DNA from: a virus
Taxonomy: Duplodnaviria > Caudoviricetes
Virus record (IMG/VR): IMGVR_UViG_3300049924_000195
Coordinates: 1-42,795 of that record
Strand: one strand, 5' to 3'
Length of the DNA stretch: 42,795 bases
Each line of letters opens with the position of its first letter. The stretch's first letter is position 1. Of this stretch, positions 516 through 42,795 are shown piece after piece. The notes beneath the pieces were generated by a model. The model worked only from the letters and a program-made list of their open reading frames with translations. It was not told where the DNA came from and searched no databases. Made by a program: the position numbers and the translations under genes.

Positions 516-1361
516 ATGAGCAACGTCGCAACACTACGTTCCGGCAGCAAGCCCATGGGCATCGTGCCGCAGAGCTTCGAGGATGTTCAGCGCCTAGCCA
601 CCATGGCTGTAGCGAGCGGCCTATGGAAGGGTGACCGCAAGGATACCGACCAGCAAAAGCACGCCAAGGCCACCATGGCGATCATGCAGGGCTTGGAGTG
701 CGGCGTGCCGCCAATGCAAGCGGTGCAAAGTATTGCGGTCATCAACGGCCGTTGCGTGATGTACGGCGATCTGCTGACGGCGCTGCTGTGGGCGAACGGC
801 TTTGATGTCGAGCAGACCATAGCCGGTAACGGGGATCAGCGCACGGCGACGTGCACGATCACGCGGCCGAACGGCAAGAAGATCGTGCGCACATTCTCGC
901 GGGCAGATGCCAAGAAAGCGCGGCTGTTCGACGATCGCCCTACCGTCAAGAAACAGTGGGACGGCAAGTGGGAAGAAAAGCCGAACGACAGCCCTTGGTT
1001 CAAGTACGAGGATCGCATGCTCGGCTGGCGTGCGCTCGGCAACGCTATGAAGGACGGCGCATCGGACGTGACGCACGGGCTCATGCTGCGAGAGGAAGTC
1101 GAGGACTATTCAAACATGGTCGACGTGACGCCGAAGCCGGTGAAGTCGCTGGCGCTCGACCTGCCTGACATACCCGATCCAGCCGCCGAAGCGGTTGACG
1201 GACCCAACGATGATACGGCCAACGCCCGCAACGACATCGCCACTGCGATCAATACCGAGATGCTGGCGCATCTGCGTGAGGTCTACCCTGATGCCGATTG
1301 GGAAAACCTCGCAGCGGAATACGACGCCAAGCTCGAATCGCTCCAGGCGGCGACCGCATGA
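516..1361 (+). CDS. RecT-like single-strand annealing protein
   Basis: AIMQGLECGVPPMQAVQSIAVINGR, FSRADAKKARL and WFKYEDRMLGWRA motifs of phage RecT-type SSAPs; start ATG 516. Confidence 0.8.
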   Translation: MSNVATLRSGSKPMGIVPQSFEDVQRLATMAVASGLWKGDRKDTDQQKHAKATMAIMQGLECGVPPMQAVQSIAVINGRCVMYGDLLTALLWANGFDVEQTIAGNGDQRTATCTITRPNGKKIVRTFSRADAKKARLFDDRPTVKKQWDGKWEEKPNDSPWFKYEDRMLGWRALGNAMKDGASDVTHGLMLREEVEDYSNMVDVTPKPVKSLALDLPDIPDPAAEAVDGPNDDTANARNDIATAINTEMLAHLREVYPDADWENLAAEYDAKLESLQAATA

Positions 1362-3315: not shown

Positions 3316-3596
3316 GCGATATTGTGGACGATCTGCGGGATTTGTACGTACAGGCGACCACTGATCGATCGCATTATTACGTGGCGTACACCACATTTCG
3401 CGCGCTCAATGAGATCGAGCTTTTGCGCAAGGCGCACATCTCAGCGCTGGCCGCTGTAACCGACGCGGAACGTCGGGTTGTAGCCGAGCGCGAGGCGTGC
3501 GCAAAGATCGCCGAGAAGTGGATGAGTGACGACAACCCGGTTGCGGACGTCGCTGTCACAATCGCTGACGAGATCCGCGATCGAGGTGAGTCATGA
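3312..3596 (+). CDS. Ead/Ea22-like modular hypothetical protein
   Basis: DIVDDLR..RALNEIELLR and AEREACAKIAE..IADEIRDR modules. Confidence 0.65.
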   Translation: MSDIVDDLRDLYVQATTDRSHYYVAYTTFRALNEIELLRKAHISALAAVTDAERRVVAEREACAKIAEKWMSDDNPVADVAVTIADEIRDRGES

Positions 3597-3790
3597 GCGC
3601 GCCCGCCGATACCCTGATCATCCCCACCGATCGCGGCCCGCTGCTGCTCAACCCCACGCCGGTCCTGCGCTGGTACATCGTACGTCCTCGCTGGCGTCGG
3701 GCGCAGCCACCGAAGCTGCAACAGTTATGGCGCGAGCGGGACACCGGCAACCCCTACTGGCGGGACGTGCCGACCGAAGTGGGGCGGTAG
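3593..3790 (+). CDS. Hypothetical protein, last gene of the rightward early operon
   Basis: ATGA coupling; LRW...KLQQLW...WRDVP pattern. Confidence 0.65.
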   Translation: MSAPADTLIIPTDRGPLLLNPTPVLRWYIVRPRWRRAQPPKLQQLWRERDTGNPYWRDVPTEVGR

Positions 3791-3799
3791 CCCTCCTAT

Positions 3800-3976
3800 C
3801 TATTTTCGCTTCGCAACGTCTATCGCGTCCCGCACCGCATACAGGTCCTGAAGCCCTGGAACGGTTGGGCTTCCCGGCCCAAGTTGCTTTCGCCCTTCGG
3901 GCGACCGCGTCCAGTCCAGTCGAGCGGCGATGAGGCGGTCAACGTAGTCGCTCACTCGGTCGAGCCTCTTACCCAT
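3800..3976 (-). CDS. 58-aa hypothetical protein (not in ORF track)
   Basis: MGKRLDRVSDYVDRLIAARLDW...IDVAKRK, translated by hand; distal end of the left array. Confidence 0.5.
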   Translation of the reverse strand: MGKRLDRVSDYVDRLIAARLDWTRSPEGRKQLGPGSPTVPGLQDLYAVRDAIDVAKRK

Positions 3977-3990
3977 CCGTGATGCTCATC

Positions 3991-4218
3991 TCAAGTTGCT
4001 TCTTTCGCGAGTTGCGCGAGGCGTTTGTGCGCTCCGGTCTCTGCGGCACGCTCGTCCCAAAGCCGCGCTGCGCTCGCGAATGATCCGGTCGTCTCGGTGC
4101 GGTAGCTGCATCGACAGCACTCCAGCGAGTGGCCGTCGAAATGCTTCCGCTCCGTCTTGATGCGTTTCGGCGGAGCGGAGTAATTGCACACTGGGCAGTA
4201 GCGATGCGTTGCGGCCAT
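3991..4218 (-). CDS. Lar-like (restriction alleviation) Zn-finger protein
   Basis: CPVC...ECCRC...AARLWDERA matches the Lar family pattern; TAGGAGG SD. Confidence 0.6.
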   Translation of the reverse strand: MAATHRYCPVCNYSAPPKRIKTERKHFDGHSLECCRCSYRTETTGSFASAARLWDERAAETGAHKRLAQLAKEAT

Positions 4219-4229
4219 CTGTGAGCCTC

Positions 4230-4421
4230 CTATCGAGTTGCGCCGCAGTCGCACGGGCTAGGTGCTTGTGCTGGCGAATTGTGATGGGCGCAGTCGGACG
4301 CATGATCTCCGGGCTCGATCACCGCAAGCAGCAGCGACATAATCTCATTCGCATCACCCTCACCCTCCCGTTGCGTTTCGAGTTTGGCTTTTATCTTTGA
4401 GCAGAGTTCGTCAATGGTCAT
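4230..4421 (-). CDS. Hypothetical protein with HxxDC..H..PCDCG motif
   Basis: Start ATG 4421 after TAGGGGGACTGTG; Cys/His-rich C-terminus. Confidence 0.6.
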   Translation of the reverse strand: MTIDELCSKIKAKLETQREGEGDANEIMSLLLAVIEPGDHASDCAHHNSPAQAPSPCDCGATR

Positions 4422-4431
4422 CACAGTCCCC

Positions 4432-4515
4432 CTAATTGTAAATGACCGGGGTTCTTCCACCCGCCCCGGTCTCCGGGCTCGTATGCGATGGCCTGTAGGC
4501 CTCAGGTTGCCCCAT
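4432..4515 (-). CDS. 27-aa micro-ORF
   Basis: TGAAAAGGAG...ATG; MGQPEAYRPSHTSPETGAGGRTPVIYN exactly fills the gap between neighbours. Confidence 0.4.
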   Translation of the reverse strand: MGQPEAYRPSHTSPETGAGGRTPVIYN

Positions 4516-4533
4516 CGCCGGGAATGCTCCTTT

Positions 4534-4779
4534 TCACATCTTTGGAAATCGATAGACGCCGGCATGCTTGCCGATGCTCAACCCACTGCAACGCTCATCG
4601 ACAATCCACGCACGACCAGCACGACTGACCGACTTCAACTTTGACACCTCGCGCTCGATATCAGCCACCGACTTCCGCTTGCGGAGAATATTGTCAAAGA
4701 TCGAAGGCTTGATGACATACTCTGTCATGAAGTCGGCGATCGTCAGCGTGCGCATCTGATCTGCTGTTGGCGTGGCCAT
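4534..4779 (-). CDS. Hypothetical protein
   Basis: 81-aa ORF with TAGGAG SD. Confidence 0.6.
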   Translation of the reverse strand: MATPTADQMRTLTIADFMTEYVIKPSIFDNILRKRKSVADIEREVSKLKSVSRAGRAWIVDERCSGLSIGKHAGVYRFPKM

Positions 4780-4790
4780 CGCAGATGCTC

Positions 4791-5024
4791 CTATCTATTG
4801 TCCGGCCGCAGCCAGATGCAAACGTCTCTCACACCTACGCTGAACTGCCGGGAGTCAATTTCGTACTCCACCACGTTGACGAAGTAGTGCCCAAGCGGTT
4901 TAAGCCAAACTTGGTCGCCAACGCGCGGGACATGATCCAGCACCACACATGCGATCGGGTCAGCACCGTCGCGCGCTTCATCATCGTTGCCGGTGCCATC
5001 GTAAAATTCGACCTTGGCAACCAT
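4791..5024 (-). CDS. Hypothetical small beta protein
   Basis: 77 aa; HVPRVGDQVWL motif; AGGAG SD. Confidence 0.65.
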   Translation of the reverse strand: MVAKVEFYDGTGNDDEARDGADPIACVVLDHVPRVGDQVWLKPLGHYFVNVVEYEIDSRQFSVGVRDVCIWLRPDNR

Positions 5025-5046
5025 TCCGCACGGCTCCTATGTTGGA

Positions 5047-5640
5047 CTAAGCAGCGCTCATGCGTCGAAAGTCGGCGTCGCTCACTGCGCTAACCACGAC
5101 CTTGGTGCCGAGGTTATCATGCCCATGAGGCACATTCTCGCGTAGCAGCCAGTCGCCCGGCTTCAGGTAGACTGGGCGGTACCCGCGACCGTAGTTGCCG
5201 TCAATATCGCGGTATTCGATACGGCGGGGGATTGGATTGGGGAACTGTTCTGCGGCGCAGTAGTCATGCCATAGCGCCAGCATTTCCTGGTCACTGCCAT
5301 CCACGTATTCCGGGCGCCAGTTGCGCTGAACGCTTTGTTCGGACTTCACAGACCACGTCGCGAACGGCAGCATCTTGCGCGCGTACCGCTCCCCGTCTTT
5401 CGGATCATATACGCAAAGCCCATCGAACGGACCGCACGCCTTGTCCGGGTCAGCCGGCACAGGATCGCGAGCAACCCCAACCCAATGTCGCGGTCGCAAC
5501 TCGGCGTAGGTGAAATAGATCAATGATCGGTCGGCAGACCAACATATTTCAGGCAGACAATTGAATGTGCCTCCCGGCAGCGGGCCGCCCTCCACCCACT
5601 GCTCGGCGTCGAGCTTCCGCGTGATCGTGATTTCTTGCAT
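5047..5640 (-). CDS. Hypothetical protein
   Basis: 197-aa ORF with TAAAAGGAG SD. Confidence 0.7.
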   Translation of the reverse strand: MQEITITRKLDAEQWVEGGPLPGGTFNCLPEICWSADRSLIYFTYAELRPRHWVGVARDPVPADPDKACGPFDGLCVYDPKDGERYARKMLPFATWSVKSEQSVQRNWRPEYVDGSDQEMLALWHDYCAAEQFPNPIPRRIEYRDIDGNYGRGYRPVYLKPGDWLLRENVPHGHDNLGTKVVVSAVSDADFRRMSAA

Positions 5641-5654
5641 GCTTGGCGCTCCTT

Positions 5655-5906
5655 TTAAGCAGCAACCTTCGCAGCGGCTGCTATCGGTTCAAGTTCAGTC
5701 CACACCGCGCCGACCATCTCGTGTTCGAGTGGACGCCAGCCGTTGATACCCTCCCAAACGCCACCGCCCCAACCGCTCCACCGCATGATGTAGAGACCAC
5801 GCGTTTGCAGAACTTTCTCAAAGCCAGGAATATAAAACAGGATGCCTTGGCTGTCTTTCGGCGCCTCGGAGAGTGGTCGCCATCTGACGGTTGAAACCAG
5901 ATGCAT
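5655..5906 (-). CDS. DUF551-like protein
   Basis: WRPLSEAPKD...W..L.P pattern. Confidence 0.6.
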   Translation of the reverse strand: MHLVSTVRWRPLSEAPKDSQGILFYIPGFEKVLQTRGLYIMRWSGWGGGVWEGINGWRPLEHEMVGAVWTELEPIAAAAKVAA

Positions 5907-5915
5907 AGCGGCTCC

Positions 5916-6587
5916 TCACGTTTTACGTTTCGCTGGCGGACGCCCGCCGGCTGACTTGCTGCCCGGCTTTCGCTTTCCGAAGATGCGCCGCGCCGTGCTC
6001 GACGATCCAAGCTCTTGCTGCAACGGCTCGGGGAACGCTTCGAACGCCATATGCTCGTTGGCGAAGGCGGCATCACGCCAGTGCTGCGCCCAACGCTTAC
6101 GTTCGGCGGCCTTGCTCTTGTGCTGCCAGCGCTCGACCACGCCGGGCAGTGCCTTGGCCCATCGCTTCGCCGCACGGTTCTGAGCAACGCGCTTCGACAT
6201 CGCCCGACCAGCCGACACGACCGACGCTGCATGTTTTACCAGATCACGCCATGATTTTCCATCGCGCGAGGTCACCCCGCTGTCGGCCTCCACTACAAAA
6301 TCAGCAGCCATCGCGACGGCCATGATCGCGGCGGCAAAGTCGGCGGTGGGGCTTTTGGTCGTCTGGCGCGTCTCGCCAATGACTTCGAGCTTGGCAACTA
6401 TCGCTGCATCGCGCGGCCGGCGCTCTAGCTGCTTGATCCATTCGTCGCGGGCTGCGTCGTCGTCGGTCGCGCTATACTCGTTGCTGATTGTGAGGTTGAG
6501 GCGTGCCGCCGCCGCCGCGCACGTCTGTCGCTGGCGCTCGACCGACAGGCCGCGAAGCGGACGGTAGAATGCCGAACAGTTTTGCAT
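5916..6587 (-). CDS. Serine-recombinase (resolvase)-fold protein with degenerate active site and C-terminal HTH-like region
   Basis: AFYRPLRGLSVERQRQTC..ISNEY..ARDEWIKQL..RPRDAAIVAKLEVIG..FVVEADSG follows resolvase motif order; SSSTARRIF and GRP near the C-terminus; catalytic YxRVS and DR motifs not intact. Confidence 0.6.
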   Translation of the reverse strand: MQNCSAFYRPLRGLSVERQRQTCAAAAARLNLTISNEYSATDDDAARDEWIKQLERRPRDAAIVAKLEVIGETRQTTKSPTADFAAAIMAVAMAADFVVEADSGVTSRDGKSWRDLVKHAASVVSAGRAMSKRVAQNRAAKRWAKALPGVVERWQHKSKAAERKRWAQHWRDAAFANEHMAFEAFPEPLQQELGSSSTARRIFGKRKPGSKSAGGRPPAKRKT

Positions 6588-6637
6588 GCAAAACCTAGTA
6601 CACGGCACTTGACAAACTGTCAAGCCTGTGCAATATT
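6579..6637. promoter_or_regulatory. Overlapping divergent sigma70-type promoters with palindromes
   Basis: CTTGACA-aac-TGTCAAG (6608-6624) gives TTGACA on both strands; leftward -10 TACTAG 17 bp away; rightward -10 candidate CAATAT/AATATT; 16-bp palindrome GTTTTGCATGCAAAAC (6579-6594) covers the ATG at 6587. Confidence 0.75.
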
Positions 6638-6686
6638 CAAGTTATCAGACCGGCGCCTCGCGGACATCAGGGGCGGAGATAGAGAT

Positions 6687-7028
6687 ATGACCAACCATCC
6701 ACACCGCAGCCGCCAGGGCGAGTACGCAATCGCGGTGCTGCGCTCTGACGTTCCTGCCGGGCAGCAGAACCACGCCAGCGGGGTGAGGACCGCCGGCGAC
6801 AAACTGGTGACGTTCGCCAGCGTTGAGGCTGCGACGAGCTACCTGCCGAAATATGTCGAGTGGGTGCGTGAGCGACACGCGGCGGATGCCAGCTGGGCGC
6901 GATATCGCAGCGCAACTGGCGATCAGGTGTTTCTGATTGTGCGCGCCGCTGATGTGTCACCGTTCGGCAATTTCCGGCCGGACGAGGTTTTCGCGACGAT
7001 CCCGCACCGAGACCTGTGGACCGTCTAA
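6687..7028 (+). CDS. First gene of the right array, hypothetical (MTNHPHRS N-terminus)
   Basis: GGAG SD, ATG 6687. Confidence 0.7.
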   Translation: MTNHPHRSRQGEYAIAVLRSDVPAGQQNHASGVRTAGDKLVTFASVEAATSYLPKYVEWVRERHAADASWARYRSATGDQVFLIVRAADVSPFGNFRPDEVFATIPHRDLWTV

Positions 7029-7045
7029 CCCCGAAAGGCCCAAAC

Positions 7046-7285
7046 GTGAAACACGCCCGCGCAGACTATGACCGCATCCAAGACCCGATGGGTAAAATCC
7101 CGGACGACGAGCCGGTGTTCCTGCTTCGAGCGCAGGACGCTTGTGCCGCGCAGCACGTCCGCGACTACGCCGACCACATCGAACTGCGAGGCGCGTCTCC
7201 CGAAATGGTTGCGATGGTTCGCGCGCACGCCGTCAAGATGGACGCCTGGCCGACCAAGAAAATCCCCGACCTCCCCAGCACCTAG
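7046..7285 (+). CDS. Phage hypothetical protein (DEPVFLLRAQD motif)
   Basis: GTG start after the linker; 79 aa. Confidence 0.7.
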   Translation: MKHARADYDRIQDPMGKIPDDEPVFLLRAQDACAAQHVRDYADHIELRGASPEMVAMVRAHAVKMDAWPTKKIPDLPST

Positions 7286-7299
7286 AAAGGCCCGCCGCC

Positions 7300-8016
7300 A
7301 TGATGCCTGAAACGCTGTCCGTTGGGACGACAGTCTACGTGCCGTCCATCACCCACAAAGAGGTGATCATGGATTGCCCGGACTGTCGCGGCGAGCACAA
7401 GTGGATCATCCGCACGCCAAGTGGACACTCGCACACGATCGAGTGTCCACGATGCAAGGGCGGCAAATCTGGATATGAGTTCCTGCGCCCAAAGCGTTAC
7501 GAGCGAACGCTGGAAATCCATGAACGCGTGATCTGCGAGGTCGAAGTGCGGCAACGCAAGGATCACAAAACCGAAGATGTACGCACGCACATCGCCTACA
7601 CCACATCGCCTCATAGCGGCAGCCTATACCCCGACAAGATCTTCACGAGCCGAGACGCTGCAGAGGATGCTGGAGCGGCAATGATGATCGAGGATGCCAA
7701 GCGCGAAAAAGCCGAATGGGAAAAAGATCAGAAGCGCGCCGAAGACCGGGCGGGACTTGATGTCATGGCTGCGCTCCAATCTCGGGCCGACAAGGCGACC
7801 GCCGATCTCAACAGCAAGATCGAACGCCTGCGCGAAGCGATGATGGAAGGCATCAAATACCCACACGGCGATGGACCGAAGTTGACCAAGACCTACGGCG
7901 GCAACAGCGAACTGACCTCGCAGTCTCTCGCCGAATGGTGCAACGAATTGCTGTCCGAAGCCGACCTTGAAACGTGGTCAGAGGAAGACCTTCACGAAGC
8001 CCTGTGCCACTGCTGA
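7300..8016 (+). CDS. Zn-finger (DnaJ-like CxxCxG) hypothetical protein
   Basis: CPDCRG...CPRCKG; ATG 7300 after the linker. Confidence 0.7.
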   Translation: MMPETLSVGTTVYVPSITHKEVIMDCPDCRGEHKWIIRTPSGHSHTIECPRCKGGKSGYEFLRPKRYERTLEIHERVICEVEVRQRKDHKTEDVRTHIAYTTSPHSGSLYPDKIFTSRDAAEDAGAAMMIEDAKREKAEWEKDQKRAEDRAGLDVMAALQSRADKATADLNSKIERLREAMMEGIKYPHGDGPKLTKTYGGNSELTSQSLAEWCNELLSEADLETWSEEDLHEALCHC

Positions 8017-8045
8017 TAAACCCGAGCAAACAAAGGCCGCTAAAA

Positions 8046-8315
8046 ATGATCCACATGGCGCCATACGGCTACTGCCCGACGTGCGGCGCCATTGGCGTAT
8101 CGCGCGAGCGCCGGCCGAACGGCGATGATCGATGCAGCAATGGACACGTCTACGCTTCGGCAAGCGCGGTTGGTCGACCACAACGCAAAGCGCCAGAGCC
8201 CAACAAATTGCTTGCCGACCCCGAGGCTGTGGCCGCCATCAAGAAACTGCAGTCTCTTGGCTACCCGGTTCACATGATCGCAGACGCCTACAAGGCTCTG
8301 CTCAACAAGTCCTAG
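8046..8315 (+). CDS. Small Zn-ribbon protein
   Basis: YGYCPTCGA..RERRPNGDDRCSNGH. Confidence 0.7.
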   Translation: MIHMAPYGYCPTCGAIGVSRERRPNGDDRCSNGHVYASASAVGRPQRKAPEPNKLLADPEAVAAIKKLQSLGYPVHMIADAYKALLNKS

Positions 8316-8326
8316 AAAGGCCCGCC

Positions 8327-8509
8327 GTGCGACCCGCCAACAACGACAAGCAGCGCAGGCACCGAACCGCGACACAGGCTGCGGCCATCCGGTCGGTGCG
8401 GTACTGCAAGAATTGTCGTCGAGGTCAACAGCCGCACAAGTTTGATCGTGGCGACGGCCGCCTAATGTGGTGCTGTCGTTACTGCAAGCATGAACACTCA
8501 GCAGTTTGA
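8327..8509 (+). CDS. Small Zn-finger protein
   Basis: CKNC...CRYC; GTG after a linker and stop within the next linker. Confidence 0.65.
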   Translation: MRPANNDKQRRHRTATQAAAIRSVRYCKNCRRGQQPHKFDRGDGRLMWCCRYCKHEHSAV

Positions 8510-8519
8510 AAGGCCCGAC

Positions 8520-8780
8520 ATGTGGCAACCGATAGAGACAGCGCCCAAGGGCGGCGGAGCTGAAATGGTGACCGACCCTAATTGGGTCGATCCGCCGCAG
8601 ATCCTGCTCTACTGCGAGAACGGCGAGCAAGTAGTCGCTCGCTGGGATTGGTATTACGCAGAAGGCGGACGCGGATACACCGATGGCGTGGCGTGGATTG
8701 CATTCAGCGAGCAGGTCAACACTAGCATCGCAGAGCCGACGCACTGGATGCCGCTTCCGGCTCCACCCGCAAACCAATAG
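8520..8780 (+). CDS. DUF551 family protein
   Basis: MWQPIETAPK...PTHWMPLPAPP. Confidence 0.85.
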   Translation: MWQPIETAPKGGGAEMVTDPNWVDPPQILLYCENGEQVVARWDWYYAEGGRGYTDGVAWIAFSEQVNTSIAEPTHWMPLPAPPANQ

Positions 8781-8794
8781 ATAGGCCACTTCAC

Positions 8795-9076
8795 ATGAGC
8801 TTCGAACACCCGTATCCAGATCACGCCTATCTGGAAGTTGACTCAGAGACGAATGAGAAGCGGTGGTTCGGCACTAAGGGTATGGGCGTGGGTTACGTGC
8901 ACGAGGATCGCGTGGCGGAAGATGTCGCAGCAGCTATTGCCGCAGAGCGCGAGGCGTGCGCGATCCTCGCTGAGATGTATCAGGACATTGCGCGAGACTC
9001 AGAATTTGATACTGGCGTGCTTCATGCGCGAGCGGGCATTGCTAAGGTAATCCGCTCACGCCGCAACCCAGCTTGA
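8795..9076 (+). CDS. Hypothetical protein with EREACA module
   Basis: AEREACAILAE...IAKVIRSR. Confidence 0.7.
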   Translation: MSFEHPYPDHAYLEVDSETNEKRWFGTKGMGVGYVHEDRVAEDVAAAIAAEREACAILAEMYQDIARDSEFDTGVLHARAGIAKVIRSRRNPA

Positions 9077-9086
9077 AAGGCCGCCC

Positions 9087-9362
9087 ATGTCAGAGCCGCG
9101 CAACAAAGCACTGAAGGCGTTCGAAGCGCTACGGGCTGACGTGGAGCAGTTCGACGACCATCCGCAGCCGGAGGGGTCTAGCTTGTTCAGCGACAAGGTG
9201 CCGCTCTACATGAAATCGTATCTCGTCAACTGGCTTCGCAACTTCGTGCGAGACCACGGCGACGACGTGCAAAATGCGTTAAAATCTGAAAAGCAAACAC
9301 AGGCCCGATATGAAACTGTCAGAGCAAGTTGCTGGTCTGGAGGCGCGGATTGTATTCGATGA
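9087..9362 (+). CDS. Hypothetical protein (probably extended by stop loss at 9300)
   Basis: ATG after a linker; reads through the next linker. Confidence 0.6.
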   Translation: MSEPRNKALKAFEALRADVEQFDDHPQPEGSSLFSDKVPLYMKSYLVNWLRNFVRDHGDDVQNALKSEKQTQARYETVRASCWSGGADCIR

Positions 9363-9510
9363 GGAATGCGTGCGGCTCCTGCACGTCATCAAGAGCACCG
9401 TCTGGGGGGAGGCCTGCTACGACCCACTGAATGACAGCACGCAGAAATTTGCGGCCCGCTTGACCGAGCCGGTGCAGGCGCTCTGTGACCGCCTCAAACT
9501 CAAGTTTTGA
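9310..9510 (+). CDS. Hypothetical protein
   Basis: ATG after CAGGCCCGAT; ends in a linker TGA. Confidence 0.65.
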   Translation: MKLSEQVAGLEARIVFDEECVRLLHVIKSTVWGEACYDPLNDSTQKFAARLTEPVQALCDRLKLKF

Positions 9511-9519
9511 AAGGCCGCC

Positions 9520-9720
9520 ATGATTACTGGCGAACCAAAAGACGATATCGTGATTGTGTTGCGGCGGGTAGAGACGCAGCTGCGCGTAGGTTACGTCATC
9601 AACCCTGACTTGGTTGTTCGGGCTGCTGATGAGATCGAGCGACTTCGTGAAGAATTGGCGGAGGCGCAACGGATCGCACGTCAGTGGCGCGATGTTGTCG
9701 CAGTGAACATCAGGAAGTAG
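9520..9720 (+). CDS. Ead/Ea22-like small protein
   Basis: DDIVIVLR..RAADEIERLREEL. Confidence 0.7.
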   Translation: MITGEPKDDIVIVLRRVETQLRVGYVINPDLVVRAADEIERLREELAEAQRIARQWRDVVAVNIRK

Positions 9721-9736
9721 AGAAAGGCCCGCCACG

Positions 9737-9892
9737 ATGGAAATCAGCCTTGAGCTTTACGAGCAGCTGAGCAAAGACCTCGCAGCGGCAATCGGGCTGG
9801 CATCGGTCTACGCACCAGAATTGCGCGATCGCCTGCTCCAGTCTTCGTCCGCGCTGGACGACGCCTACCACGCCGAGGAAACTGACGAATAG
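9737..9892 (+). CDS. 51-aa acidic protein (not in ORF track)
   Basis: MEISLELYEQLSKDLAAAIG...AEETDE, bounded by two linkers. Confidence 0.65.
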   Translation: MEISLELYEQLSKDLAAAIGLASVYAPELRDRLLQSSSALDDAYHAEETDE

Positions 9893-9903
9893 GAAGCCCC
9901 GCC

Positions 9904-9996
9904 ATGTGGCAACCAATTTCGACTGCGCCGCGCGACGGCACGCCCGTCCTGCAGCAGTCGCGATTTACGAAAAACGATAGAAAGGCCGCCCCGTGA
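9904..9996 (+). pseudogene. Truncated DUF551 remnant
   Basis: MWQPISTAPRDGTPVL then breaks off; the linker TAG at 9978 is out of frame. Confidence 0.7.
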
Positions 9997-10232
9997 CACT
10001 TGAAGAACTATTCGCCAAAACAGAAGATGGCTACGCCGACACGCACGCGATAGCCCATTATGCGCGCGCTATGGTCCTGCTAGAGCGCGAAGCATGCGCG
10101 ATGATAGCCGACCGGCGCGCAGCGATCTGTCGCGAAGCCATGGATGGACCGCCAGACAGCCTGCCTCATGTTGAAGTGCACACCATGAATGAAGCGCTGC
10201 ACATCGCAACCATGATCCGCAACCGCACTTGA
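9993..10232 (+). CDS. Hypothetical protein with EREACA module
   Basis: LEREACAMIAD...IATMIRNR. Confidence 0.7.
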   Translation: MTLEELFAKTEDGYADTHAIAHYARAMVLLEREACAMIADRRAAICREAMDGPPDSLPHVEVHTMNEALHIATMIRNRT

Positions 10233-10245
10233 AAGTCCCCGCCCG

Positions 10246-10473
10246 ATGACCGCGATGGTGCGAATATCGAGGGATGATGCACTCGCCGTTGCCCGGTGGC
10301 AGTACGCGGACCTGAGAAAGCAGCAGAAAGCTGGCAACCCATTTTGCCGGATGCTTCTGACTGAGGATGCGTGGTGCCAAATTCGCGCCAATGAAATCAT
10401 GCGTATAGGCGCGACCGACACGGAACGTGCGTACTTGATCCGCAATCGCGCTTCGGCGCAAAACAATAGTTAG
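10246..10473 (+). CDS. Hypothetical protein
   Basis: 75 aa between two linkers. Confidence 0.65.
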   Translation: MTAMVRISRDDALAVARWQYADLRKQQKAGNPFCRMLLTEDAWCQIRANEIMRIGATDTERAYLIRNRASAQNNS

Positions 10474-10578
10474 GCCGCCATGTCCGTCGATGATATCATT
10501 CGAGAGGAACTGGCAGCTACCACACCAGGATGACGGGCGCCGCCACGACACAGCACCACAGCACCCAGCTCGGCCATT

Positions 10579-10854
10579 TCAGCGGCCGAGGAAGGCTAAC
10601 CCCTGGACCACGGTCCACTTGCCCATAGCCACCCCGATCAGGATGGCGAGGCCGTAAATCGCCGGCAGGTAGTCGGACAGGGGCCGCCGGGGCGCTGGCG
10701 AAGATTCGAGGCGGGTCTCGACCTTCTCGATACGGTCTGTCAGATGGTCGATCTTTTCCTCGATTCGGCCCGTCGTCGTACCAAGAGTGTAGAGGATCGA
10801 GTCGAGCCCGGCGGCCGGCAAATTCGGCGATGATCGCCCGTTCAATTGTCGCAT
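10579..10854 (-). CDS. Coiled-coil plus C-terminal TM protein (holin/XhlA-like candidate)
   Basis: GRIEEKIDHLTDRIEKVETRLE followed by a hydrophobic helix; end of the lysis cassette. Confidence 0.5.
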   Translation of the reverse strand: MRQLNGRSSPNLPAAGLDSILYTLGTTTGRIEEKIDHLTDRIEKVETRLESSPAPRRPLSDYLPAIYGLAILIGVAMGKWTVVQGLAFLGR

Positions 10855-39897: not shown

Positions 39898-40128
39898 TTA
39901 GGCGGCTACGCTAGACTGATTCGCCCTTTTTCGGGCGCGACCGTTTCCCACCGCACTCATGTAGCGGCGGATTTTATCGACCCGCCCCGTAGTGCAGTCA
40001 AACCCGGCCCGCAGCCGCCGCACGATGTGTGGGTCGCCGCAGGACGCCTTGCCAAACGCCGTCGGGTTCATACCCGACAGCTTCAGGAATGCTTCGATTT
40101 CAGTGAGTAGCTGCTTGCGAATTGTCAT
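39898..40128 (-). CDS. Cro-like HTH regulator
   Basis: LLTEIEAFLKLSGMNPTAFG..GDPHIVRRLRAG, a Cro type common in alphaproteobacterial phages. Confidence 0.8.
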   Translation of the reverse strand: MTIRKQLLTEIEAFLKLSGMNPTAFGKASCGDPHIVRRLRAGFDCTTGRVDKIRRYMSAVGNGRARKRANQSSVAA

Positions 40129-40135
40129 GCCGGAT

Positions 40136-40242
40136 ACACTAATGATATTTTAGTCGCGCGTCAAGATCGGCCACGGTTATCCACAAAAGTGATAAATTTT
40201 TCATTTTACCCCTTGACCAATGACAAATTCGTCATTTATGGT
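40136..40242. promoter_or_regulatory. Divergent early promoters with three 18-bp operator-like sites and a DnaA box
   Basis: Leftward TTGACG-17-TAGTGT; rightward TTGACC-18-TATGGT; sites at 40141, 40188 and 40219 (AATGAC-N6-GTCATT); TTATCCACA at 40177-40185. Confidence 0.75.
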
Positions 40243-40347
40243 GCGTCTCATCACCTCGGCGGCACGGGCAAGCGTGATGCCCGCACCATCGGGAGGCCCC
40301 CTCAGCTTCTAGGCCGCCGGGGTGATGCAAAACAGGGAGGATTGTTG

Positions 40348-40671
40348 ATGACCATTTCAGCCACCGTCGCCGAGCGCAAAGCATTGAGCGTTGAGCTTGG
40401 TGACGCACTCGCCACCATCGAATCGCAGGCCTTCGAGGTGCTGTCGGAGGGCGAGATCGGGACCACGGAAGAATATCTCAATTGCGACCGCTACGACATG
40501 GAAGTGACGCTTCTGTCCGCCGCCAGGGCGTTTTCGGCGATCCTTGCCACGCACCGTGCCGAGCGCACGCGGCTCGCATCCGATCATGACGAGATCGAGC
40601 ACGAGCAAGCGACGATCGAGCGCATGAACGCAGGACTGGGTTACGGTCATCTGCAGCGGGAGATGGTGTGA
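40348..40671 (+). CDS. Hypothetical acidic protein, first rightward early gene
   Basis: GGGAGG SD, ATG 40348. Confidence 0.7.
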   Translation: MTISATVAERKALSVELGDALATIESQAFEVLSEGEIGTTEEYLNCDRYDMEVTLLSAARAFSAILATHRAERTRLASDHDEIEHEQATIERMNAGLGYGHLQREMV

Positions 40672-41026: not shown

Positions 41027-41233
41027 ATGCCGACCAAGCAGGATCTGGAGCGGGCGAACCGCGTACGCGTCGAGGACTGCAAGCCGCAACTGACGATGGC
41101 GCAAGCCATGAACGCTTGCATGCACTGGTCGCCGGAAGAGGCGAGCTTGCACACGTTTCTGGTGCGCTACCACAGCGTCAACACCTATCGGCCATCGGGC
41201 CGGACACTCAAACGGTCGGAGATTGAGAGATGA
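41027..41233 (+). CDS. Hypothetical protein
   Basis: GAAAGGGA SD; ATGA coupling. Confidence 0.6.
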   Translation: MPTKQDLERANRVRVEDCKPQLTMAQAMNACMHWSPEEASLHTFLVRYHSVNTYRPSGRTLKRSEIER

Positions 41234-42207
41234 CGGACGAATTCCAATTCTGGCGCGACAGCTTGGCTGGCAAGAAGCCGCCGATCAGCGCCGACCATCC
41301 GCAATCAGGGTACTACCGCAAGCGCAACGGCAAGGGCTGGGCGTGGCTGCCGGTGGCGATCTGGACGCACAAGGAAACCGGCCGCCAAGTGGCACGCGTG
41401 GCTGACGACATGGTGGCGCCGCTCGACGTATGGACGTGGGTCGCAGGCAATCCGGTGGCTAAGGAAGCTGCCGTGCAGGCATTCAAAACCGGCGCATGGC
41501 CGGGCGATGCGCCCTCGGTCGCGAGCCAGGAGATCGGCGCCAACAACCCGCCGAGCGAGATTACGGATCTGATCCCGCTTGAAGTGGCCGCCGCCGACGA
41601 GTTTCTGGCAAAGGTAGGCCGGATCACCACCCAGGTCGACAGCGACATTGCCTCAAACAAGGTCGATAATCTGCGCAAGCTGCGCAAGGCCGCCGATCTT
41701 GCGCACAAGACCGAGAAAGAACCGCACCTTGCCGCCGGCCGCGCCGTTGATGACAAGTACCGCGTGCGCGAGGATGCCGACAACGCAGTGCGGCTTCTGC
41801 TGGCAGCTATCACGGTATTTCATAACGCGGAAAAGGCGCGGCTGCAAAAGATCGCCGACGAGAAGGCCGCCAAGGAACGCGCCGAATGGGAAAAGCAGAA
41901 GGCGCTGCACGAAGCCGCTGCCGCTAAGTCTGAGTTTGAAAGCGAGGCCGCAGCGATCTTGGCCGACGCACAGCCGCCACCGAAGCCGCCCGAACCGGTC
42001 AAGGTCAAGAGCGGCGGCGCGCAAGGCAAAGCAGTCTCACTGCGCACCTACAAGGTTGCAACCATCACCGACTACGACAAGGCGTTGGTGGCGCTGAAAG
42101 ACCATCCCGAATTGCGTGAGCTGGTGCAGAAGCTCGCCGATCGCGCCTGCAAGGCCGGCGTGCCATTGGATGGCGTCAAATATTCTGAAGAACAGAGGGC
42201 AGCATGA
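41230..42207 (+). CDS. Conserved phage early coiled-coil protein (recombination-module partner)
   Basis: PQSGYYR..WLPVAIW, IGANNPP, KTEKEPHLAAGRAVDDKY. Confidence 0.75.
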   Translation: MTDEFQFWRDSLAGKKPPISADHPQSGYYRKRNGKGWAWLPVAIWTHKETGRQVARVADDMVAPLDVWTWVAGNPVAKEAAVQAFKTGAWPGDAPSVASQEIGANNPPSEITDLIPLEVAAADEFLAKVGRITTQVDSDIASNKVDNLRKLRKAADLAHKTEKEPHLAAGRAVDDKYRVREDADNAVRLLLAAITVFHNAEKARLQKIADEKAAKERAEWEKQKALHEAAAAKSEFESEAAAILADAQPPPKPPEPVKVKSGGAQGKAVSLRTYKVATITDYDKALVALKDHPELRELVQKLADRACKAGVPLDGVKYSEEQRAA

Positions 42208-42795
42208 GCACCGTCGCCACACTTCGCAGCGGCAGCAAGCCCATGGGCATCGTGCCGCAGAGCTTCGAGGATGTTCAGCGCCTAGCCACCATGGCTGTAG
42301 CGAGCGGCCTATGGAAGGGTGACCGCAAAGACACCGACCAGCAAAAGCATGCCAAGGCCACCATGGCGATCATGCAAGGCTTGGAATGCGGTGTGCCGCC
42401 AATGCAAGCGGTGCAAAGCATTGCGGTCATCAACGGCCGCTGCGTGATGTACGGCGATCTGTTGACGGCGCTGCTATGGGCGAACGGCTTTGATGTCGAG
42501 CAGACCATAGCCGGTGACGGGGATCGGCGCACAGCAACGTGCACGATCACGCGCCCGAACGGCAAGAAGATCGTCCGCACATTCTCGCGGGCAGATGCCA
42601 AGAAAGCGCGGCTGTTCGACGATCGCCCGACCGTCAAGAAACAGTGGGATGGCAAGTGGGAAGAAAAGCCGAATGACAGCCCTTGGTTCAAGTACGAGGA
42701 TCGCATGCTCGGCTGGCGTGCGCTCGGCAACGCTATGAAGGACGGCGCATCGGACGTGACGCACGGGCTCATGCTGCGAGAGGAAGTCGAGGACT
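41834..42795 (+). repeat. Right copy of imperfect terminal redundancy
   Basis: Matches 1-1107 except for SNPs, a changed linker and the missing 332-514 ORF. Confidence 0.95.
42204..42795 (+). CDS. RecT-like SSAP, second allele, 3'-truncated by the window
   Basis: Near-identical to 516-1107. Confidence 0.85.
   Translation, partial: MSTVATLRSGSKPMGIVPQSFEDVQRLATMAVASGLWKGDRKDTDQQKHAKATMAIMQGLECGVPPMQAVQSIAVINGRCVMYGDLLTALLWANGFDVEQTIAGDGDRRTATCTITRPNGKKIVRTFSRADAKKARLFDDRPTVKKQWDGKWEEKPNDSPWFKYEDRMLGWRALGNAMKDGASDVTHGLMLREEVED

Follow-up and report, generated by a model that had tools for sequence, protein, structure and literature searches.

A run of small co-oriented genes at 6687–10533 of a 42,795-nt viral genome record (IMG/VR record IMGVR_UViG_3300049924_000195, all of it hereafter called the window) is chained by copies of one short sequence, the joint, and an initial annotation had read this run as an integron-like array of gene cassettes. 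We find that the array is real, that shuffling of cassettes at the joints is supported by comparison with related sequences, and that an integron-like enzyme is unsupported. We consider it rather probable that this run forms one of the two arms of an accessory-gene module carried by lambdoid phages, likely of Alphaproteobacteria, that the joints are homology points for RecT-type recombination, and that a catalytically dead resolvase encoded between the arms regulates their promoter. Coordinates are collected in Table 1.

Small genes of the right array are chained by a common joint

The right (divergent) array holds 15 co-oriented open reading frames (ORFs) of 17–238 amino acids (aa), as the initial annotation had estimated, and the ten linkers that it quoted all lie where it had placed them. 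Stop codon, joint and start codon follow one another at 13 of the 14 junctions, with gaps of 6–29 nt; the claim that every junction is built in this way fails at 9310, where the joint lies within the upstream ORF 9087–9362 (53-nt overlap). The genes are for the most part unrelated, as had been proposed, except that 9904 is a 24-aa remnant of the DUF551 family of 8520 and that 8795 and 9993 both hold an AEREAC module. This short AEREAC(A) coding module occurs in unrelated small genes, at 3478–3519, 8937–8978 and 10075–10116 of the window, at ~6860 of the related locus L057 and at ~12285 of the related locus L058.

The sequence GAAAGGCC is present in nine copies in the window, eight of them inside the right array. 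The pattern AAAGGCC-N3-9-start precedes 9/14 array starts and 1/44 other window starts in our own gene list (Fisher P 1.7e-6, a value inflated because the motif was picked after the array had been seen), and a relaxed motif (AAG[TC]CC or AGGCC) precedes 14/14 and 2/44, respectively. The strict pattern precedes none of the 79 annotated starts of a control phage, Rhizobium phage RHph_TM3_3_3, and has no match in the related virus records G001 and G002. In Sinorhizobium meliloti pSymB (1.68 Mb) there are 69 matches, compared with 66 for the reversed pattern; this count is at background, and the motif is therefore not a general ribosome site there. The enrichment over other junctions that had been predicted is thus observed, and confinement of the motif to the array holds apart from one core gene start (29808). 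A search of viral contigs with the exact linker pattern gave 27 matches, none of which, on inspection, had an array of the motif. A single GTTAGGC at joint 14 resembles the integron core site; it is found at only one of the 14 joints and was dismissed as chance.

The joint is not limited to the intergenic gap. CAA or AAAC occurs in the final 9 nt before the stop in 5/13 right-array genes, 5/8 left-array genes, 10/11 cassettes of the related locus L029 and 6/116 control genes (counts that leave out ORFs 9087 and 10480 and two L029 cassettes). Given this bias, we conclude that the joint includes the last codons of the gene: it covers the final 10–15 nt of the upstream gene, whose last codons and stop it provides.

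A second array diverges from a putative two-way promoter

A second (left) array, overlooked by the initial annotation, runs in the opposite direction and has its own type of joint. GAGC is found at 6/8 left-array starts versus 2/44 other starts. GGAG[CG] also lies upstream of 18/79 starts in the control phage, so the left joint type alone is weakly distinctive. Between the two arrays are gene 5916–6587 and a back-to-back promoter-like site, in agreement with the promoter that had been placed at the array head. The best promoter-like match of the region is at 6609–6637, and none was found on the plus strand within the array (consensus scan only). All five relatives that were aligned have a similar site. 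In the window and in four of these five relatives, the −10-like hexamer closely precedes the ATG; because the ATG stands so close behind it, the sequence suggests that the mRNA of gene 5916–6587 is leaderless.

The gene between the arrays encodes a catalytically dead resolvase

The recombinase fold that had been assigned to the product of 5916–6587 is borne out by a structure model (pLDDT 85.6) that matches serine recombinase catalytic domains in Foldseek (best, 3guv, E 6.8e-5; gamma-delta resolvase, 2rsl, E 6.7e-4) and keeps both the resolvase catalytic-domain fold and a dimer-type architecture. Sequence identity to resolvases is only 14–19% and hhalign was not significant; residue mapping consequently rests on the fold match and motif spacing. 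On this mapping the window protein has no equivalents of S10, R68 and R71, with FYRPL and LEVIGE at these motifs. A profile search defined a family of 191 clusters at 50% identity. From 178 proteins, 137 of 190–250 aa were aligned (MAFFT) with gamma-delta resolvase and Gin, five partial or fused forms being left out. Q19 is kept in 132 members, L66 in 124 and R8 in 95. The catalytic serine motif [YFW]xR[VILYC]S is found in 0/137, the active-site loop is one residue shorter in 134/137, and V, L, A or C predominates at the R68 position. By known chemistry the protein cannot be an active serine recombinase, and we conclude that the integron-like enzyme of the initial annotation fails because none of the 137 aligned members keeps the catalytic serine motif.

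Sequence searches against Pfam and the PDB fail to identify the family, and the window protein itself has no Pfam match; the ESM Atlas returned resolvase clusters at 0.81, as a lead only. Among 40 members scanned, which were picked partly for odd length, a T5orf172/MUG113 domain was found in 15, and a weak Resolvase match in one. T5orf172/MUG113 (GIY-YIG-like) fusions are seen at either end of family members, or with the C-terminal domain alone (P0020, P0021, P0038 and others). No second resolvase was found in the window by Pfam. Searched as a single protein or a close alignment, the dead resolvase had no match in viral contigs; GTDB genomes, annotated phages and plasmids gave none either, and wider alignments retrieved 3 + 3 + 2 loci. 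A literature search that was thin on subscription papers and did not extend to supplements turned up no account of such arrays headed by a dead resolvase in phages.

The helical C-terminal domain, the likely leaderless start and the conserved palindrome adjoining the gene make the dead resolvase a likely, if putative, regulator of the two-way promoter. In the Tn3 family, resolvases act at res as repressors of divergent promoters.

Relatives keep two joint types, one in each arm

Seven independent loci with flanks were compared with the window: L028/L029 (taken as one), L030, L056, L057, L058, L059 and L060. The module is kept in 7/7, at identities down to 34%, and in all seven the joints are of the AGGCC type on the divergent side and of the GGAG type behind the dead resolvase, with cargo that is mostly different. 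In L029, L030, L056, L057 and L058, the strict AGGCC/AAGCCC type is found at 16/18 divergent-side starts versus 1/29 on the other side, and the GGAG type at 2/18 versus 27/29; the starts were hand-picked, and three downstream starts are 1–2 bases off with the motif still in the examined window. L059 and L060 (34% identical) have the same pattern by eye and are outside these counts. The arrays of L056 and L059 are short. Window cassettes had no match in L028–L030 (22 queries, one of them mis-framed).

Some of the cargo of the relatives is recognisable. L057 carries a DNA methyltransferase (phrog_757; 6127–6738, minus strand) as a cassette of its divergent arm, and L029 encodes a 453-aa protein with a long N-L-x-D/A-N-L tetrapeptide repeat (7919–9280, minus strand). 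In L056 the first downstream cassette merges, by eye, into antitoxin-like sequence followed by a RelE/ParE-like gene (~8810–9280), possibly a fusion or a misassembly near the contig end. At 4875–4915 and 5030–6052 of L029, the 5′ part of a tRNA-like sequence lies between the array and a tyrosine integrase, an attP-like arrangement; ARAGORN found no whole tRNA. Finally, in an unrelated phage (L036, 3593–6351) a few accessory genes that lie before xis and int are linked by a joint of the form TGA..CCCATGTAC..CTGCCCATG. L036 is unrelated to the module and its joint is another one, so joints of this kind also exist outside this system.

Cassettes change order and neighbours at the joints

Window cassettes 8520 and 8795, which are adjacent, have homologues in L057 (~79% nucleotide identity) that stand three genes apart in the opposite order, and all of their neighbours are different. 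For both cassettes the homology begins at the ATG. For 8520 it stops four codons short of the stop, and the L057 tail at this point is common to a neighbouring joint and to a joint of L058. Tails are shared elsewhere too: cassette 10246 and a different gene of the close relative L032 have their final 20 nt in common (one mismatch), and different genes have exact joints in common over 25 nt (opposite arms of L058), 18 nt (L057/L058, and within L029) and 16 nt (window/L029, and within the window). One cassette of L029 is duplicated joint to joint (357 nt, 85%), and one cassette family occupies the first place of the downstream arm in L056 and the second place of the divergent arm in L058. Cassette 7046 is itself widespread; none of 13 viral homologues has the joint upstream, which is consistent with capture into the array. 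We conclude that gene capture or shuffling, as originally suggested, is supported: relatives have different genes between joints of the same type, cassettes in common change their order and neighbours, and homology starts from the start codon.

The divergent arm faces lysis or tail genes in the window, L056, L057 and L060. In L058 the dead-resolvase arm faces the lysis side (endolysin), and the core is thus flipped relative to the lysis genes. The outermost joints of L058 are switched, the two outermost on the divergent side being of the GGAG type and the outermost downstream of the AAAGCCC type, and an identical 25-mer is present in inverted orientation in the two arms (7674 and 11836). This arrangement is what a crossover between opposite-arm joints would leave. 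More than one event is needed, because the 25-mers do not lie at the inferred switch on the divergent side. Just past the divergent arm of the flipped module is a gene for an intact-looking small serine recombinase (5233–5943, minus strand; YMRTS, ANRLAR).

Likeness to known systems

Integrons comprise an IntI integrase, attI, attC sites and the promoter Pc. The window array resembles them in its putative head promoter, its single-gene cassettes that appear promoterless, a divergent gene of a recombinase family, and the gain, loss and reordering of single cassettes. It differs in that no tyrosine integrase was found among the scanned window proteins and the adjoining gene has a serine-resolvase fold, in having neither an attC hairpin nor a fixed crossover point, and in the second array behind the divergent gene. 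Thirteen junction 63-mers gave only weak folds (−3 to −11 kcal/mol; no shuffle control), and no structure was common to them on either strand. With small serine recombinases (gamma-delta/Tn3 resolvase, Gin; PF00239), the dead family shares fold, length, domain order, R8, Q19, L66 and a gene position at a divergent promoter; it differs in lacking the catalytic serine and R68/R71 and in its occasional T5orf172/MUG113 fusion.

Closer parallels exist among phages. The window joints are asymmetric ribosome-site motifs, conserved beyond rRNA pairing and found at non-structural genes only. The start-associated sequences (SAS) of cluster K mycobacteriophages (PMC3203893) and Microbacterium phages of cluster EF (PMC7302621), proposed translation signals, have the same properties, lie 3–7 bp ahead of starts, sometimes with the upstream stop inside, and have similar letters: the left joint type resembles the cluster K sequence GGGATAGGAGCCC and the right type the cluster EF sequence GGGAAAGGACCCC. 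SAS are tighter 13-mers (at most two deviations) spread over the right genome arm, with inverted repeats (extended SAS, ESAS) at about half of the sites, whereas window joints are less strict, occupy one junction after another and fall where genes are swapped. The joints vary in length, and no joint inverted repeat of at least 16 nt was among the 25 longest listed (shorter ones were outside the search).

Another parallel is the promoter early stem-loop (PeSL) of T4-type phages, a repeated intergenic element among small non-essential genes, for which copy–copy recombination has been proposed as the source of single-gene changes (Arbiol et al. 2010, PMC2839356). In both cases small genes are joined by repeats and would be lost, gained or exchanged singly without an integrase, and in the window module indels between relatives are bounded by the joint (few events, one end mid-gene). 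PeSL elements span ~100 bp with a promoter and a terminator stem-loop, whereas the window joint spans 15–25 nt and was tested and found to have neither; window joints also overlap the stop and ribosome site, fall into two arm-specific types and share one two-way promoter with a dead resolvase. By analogy, the module would work like T4 PeSL shuffling with SAS-like joints. The boundary sequences of lambdoid mosaics, as cited in two accounts (PMC3029335, PMC2327257), are likewise short, conserved, at module edges and used by general or phage recombination; here, by contrast, one joint family is found at nearly every single-gene junction of an array. Since SAS, PeSL and boundary sequences precede it, the phenomenon is not wholly the undescribed system that the initial annotation had taken it for.

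A model for exchange at the joints, and its alternatives

In the mechanism that we propose, the joints would be short homologies for the phage's RecT-type recombination that keep each incoming gene translatable, with its RecT-like protein and exonuclease as the obvious candidate enzymes. Crossover between joints of the same orientation would delete, insert, duplicate or replace whole genes and rebuild a working stop and ribosome site, and crossover between opposite-arm joints would invert the core and swap outer cassettes. Repeated exchange inside an arm would keep the joints of that arm alike, and recombinants elsewhere would mostly be lost with the gene or its start broken. The two transcripts would be under the control of the dead resolvase, bound to the palindromic promoter or close to it. 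Homology-driven exchange is suggested by joints that are variable and asymmetric, without a shared hairpin or fixed crossover base, and by one mid-gene breakpoint at a shared module; the same observations fit less well with the earlier proposal that the linker is a single crossover site. Such events are expected to be rare and enriched by selection, since Red-type systems recombine diverged sequences well and very short ones poorly (PMC2327257), and since crossover at a joint restores stop, ribosome site and start.

Several points weigh against this model. Base-level mapping covers two window cassettes and one junction, and one of the four mapped cassette ends is mid-gene: homology between 8795 and L057 ends at the AEREAC module, which recurs three times in the window, so that the expected breakpoints at the linker are seen at the starts of 8520 and 8795 and not at this 3′ end. 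Most joints share only 9–17 exact bases, which is short for annealing proteins, and a figure of ~1e-8 is cited for RecET at 5–13 bp (PMC2327257). Exchange is read from sequence comparison, and the enzyme and the regulation are inferred. Gene-edge breakpoints are equally expected from selection acting on random recombination. No RecT was found in the four relative loci searched, the whole records behind L056–L060 not being part of that search; a search with RecT returned one viral relative (G001), on a contig that ends before the module, and none from GTDB. The orientation seen in L058 could also come from a separate insertion of the module, which an intact-looking serine recombinase adjoins. 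The host group, too, is deduced from gene content and not from a host assignment.

The joints might instead be SAS-type translation elements kept alike by selection, for example because a phage factor uses them or because the translation of each arm is timed; genes would arrive through illegitimate recombination, and expression and retention would be limited to those inserted at a joint. As a full explanation we regard this as rather unlikely. The joints do occupy the ribosome site, both types resemble published SAS, and the two types stay arm-specific in five relatives although cassettes change arms; exact 16–25-nt joints reaching into the coding tails of unrelated genes, the joint-to-joint duplication in L029 and the switched outer joints of L058 would, however, be left unexplained. 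Selection on translation and RecT-type exchange are compatible, and both can hold. A decidedly unlikely alternative gives the dead resolvase a non-catalytic role as an adaptor, which would bring two joints together or recruit a partner that cuts (an intact serine recombinase, a T5orf172/GIY-YIG domain or RecT), in a dedicated integrase-free cassette system. Conservation of the module in every other locus with flanks, retention of the fold and dimer-type architecture, the T5orf172/MUG113 fusions in the partly length-selected sample and the intact-looking recombinase beside the flipped module of L058 would fit such a role. Resolvase binding sites are unlike asymmetric, variable joints, the promoter palindrome is the only conserved palindrome, L036 has a similar joint array with no such gene nearby, and by Pfam the window has no second resolvase, all of which argues against it.

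That the 5916–6587 protein is an active site-specific recombinase with the linker as its crossover site is highly improbable: the fold, the gene position at the head of the arrays and the cassette-like shuffling in relatives are as expected, but the equivalents of S10, R68 and R71 are gone family-wide, the loop is shortened and there is no fixed crossover point. We find it hardly credible that the motif is an ordinary ribosome site of the phage or its host and that small genes have accumulated in the array by chance. The motif is partly Shine–Dalgarno-like, and GGAG[CG] is common at control-phage starts; against this stand the near absence of the right type from other window starts, its absence from control-phage starts, its background level in pSymB and the arm-specific joint types in relatives. 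A more far-reaching reading, which we think quite unlikely, would make the resolvase a non-catalytic hub that controls two arrays and helps to pair joints in a dedicated system of alphaproteobacterial phages, giving integrase-free capture of translation-ready genes, with core flips that trade genes between AGGCC and GGAG arms of differing expression programmes.

Phage genome and setting of the module

By gene content (scans of 50 window proteins by PHROGs and 37 by Pfam), the window is a near-complete lambdoid podophage with P22-like portal and coat, terminase, a NusG-type antiterminator, a replication protein, exonuclease, a RecT-like protein, NinB-like and HNH genes, endolysin and spanin. 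The host is likely in the Alphaproteobacteria, judging from the same genes. The module (6.7 kb) is flanked by the early operon (plus strand, ending at 3790) and the late operon (minus strand, ending at 10579). Integrase is absent between the early operon and the left array, the slot in which the related phage L029 has an integrase and att piece, and no tRNA was found in the window.

The window ends (1–1361 and 41230–42795) are non-identical copies of the exonuclease–RecT region (88% and 95%), the left copy having an additional 60-aa gene (332–514) at the exonuclease/RecT stop/start overlap; the contig may join two strains. At 40128–40348 is a Cro-like gene with a divergent promoter region; the window has neither a recognisable cI repressor gene nor an integrase. 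Either an obligately lytic phage or an incomplete contig (CheckV 67%) may account for this.

Table 1 Coordinates of the module and of the candidate recombination genes in the window
Feature	Position	Strand	Remarks
Right (divergent) array	6687–10533	+	15 small ORFs; converges on lysis genes
Right-array ORF starts 1–8	6687, 7046, 7300, 8046, 8327, 8520, 8795, 9087	+	8520, DUF551
Right-array ORF starts 9–15	9310, 9520, 9737, 9904, 9993, 10246, 10480	+	9904, 24-aa DUF551 remnant
Joint 1	7026–7048	+	TAA..GAAAGGCCC..GTG
Joint 2	7283–7302	+	exact 16–17-mer in common with joint 4
Joint 3	8014–8048	+	long form, AAAGGCCGC
Joint 4	8313–8329	+	
Joint 5	8507–8522	+	homology to the L057 copy of cassette 8520 starts at its end
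Joint 6	8778–8797	+	CAATAGATAGGCC; 11-mer in common with left-array joint at 4779
Joint 7	9074–9089	+	
Joint 8	9299–9312	+	degenerate; within ORF 9087–9362, no preceding stop
Joint 9	9508–9522	+	
Joint 10	9718–9739	+	
Joint 11	9890–9906	+	AAGCCCC variant
Joint 12	9978–9995	+	
Joint 13	10230–10248	+	AAGTCCCC variant
Joint 14	10460–10482	+	includes final four codons of cassette 10246
Left (second) array	3800–5906	−	8 small ORFs; stop-GGAG(C)-start joints
Left-array ORF starts	5906, 5640, 5024, 4779, 4515, 4421, 4218, 3976	−	
Catalytically dead small serine-resolvase homologue	5916–6587	−	223 aa; C-terminal helical (HTH-like) domain, GGRP tail
Back-to-back promoter-like site	6588–6640		17-bp palindrome 6608–6624 containing both overlapping −35 hexamers
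Rightward promoter-like site	6609–6637	+	TTGACA-17-TG-AATATT
Leftward −10-like hexamer	7 nt ahead of ATG at 6587	−	
RecT-like single-strand annealing protein	516–1361	+	phrog_561, E 1.5e-10 (scan on ORF 441–1358); candidate exchange enzyme
Exonuclease, partner of RecT-like protein	41230–42207	+	phrog_10477, E 1.3e-22

Significance

The module makes an old question testable, namely whether recombination at conserved boundary sequences creates the borders in phage mosaics or selection alone accounts for them: it is compact, has more than 20 joints of two types from which particular deletions, duplications and inversions can be predicted, and belongs to a phage with a RecT system. The joint is also a natural scarless connector for chaining small genes. 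The dead-resolvase family, unannotated and comprising the 191 clusters described above, marks arrays of small accessory genes, and is thus a guilt-by-association handle for host-interaction and counter-defence genes.

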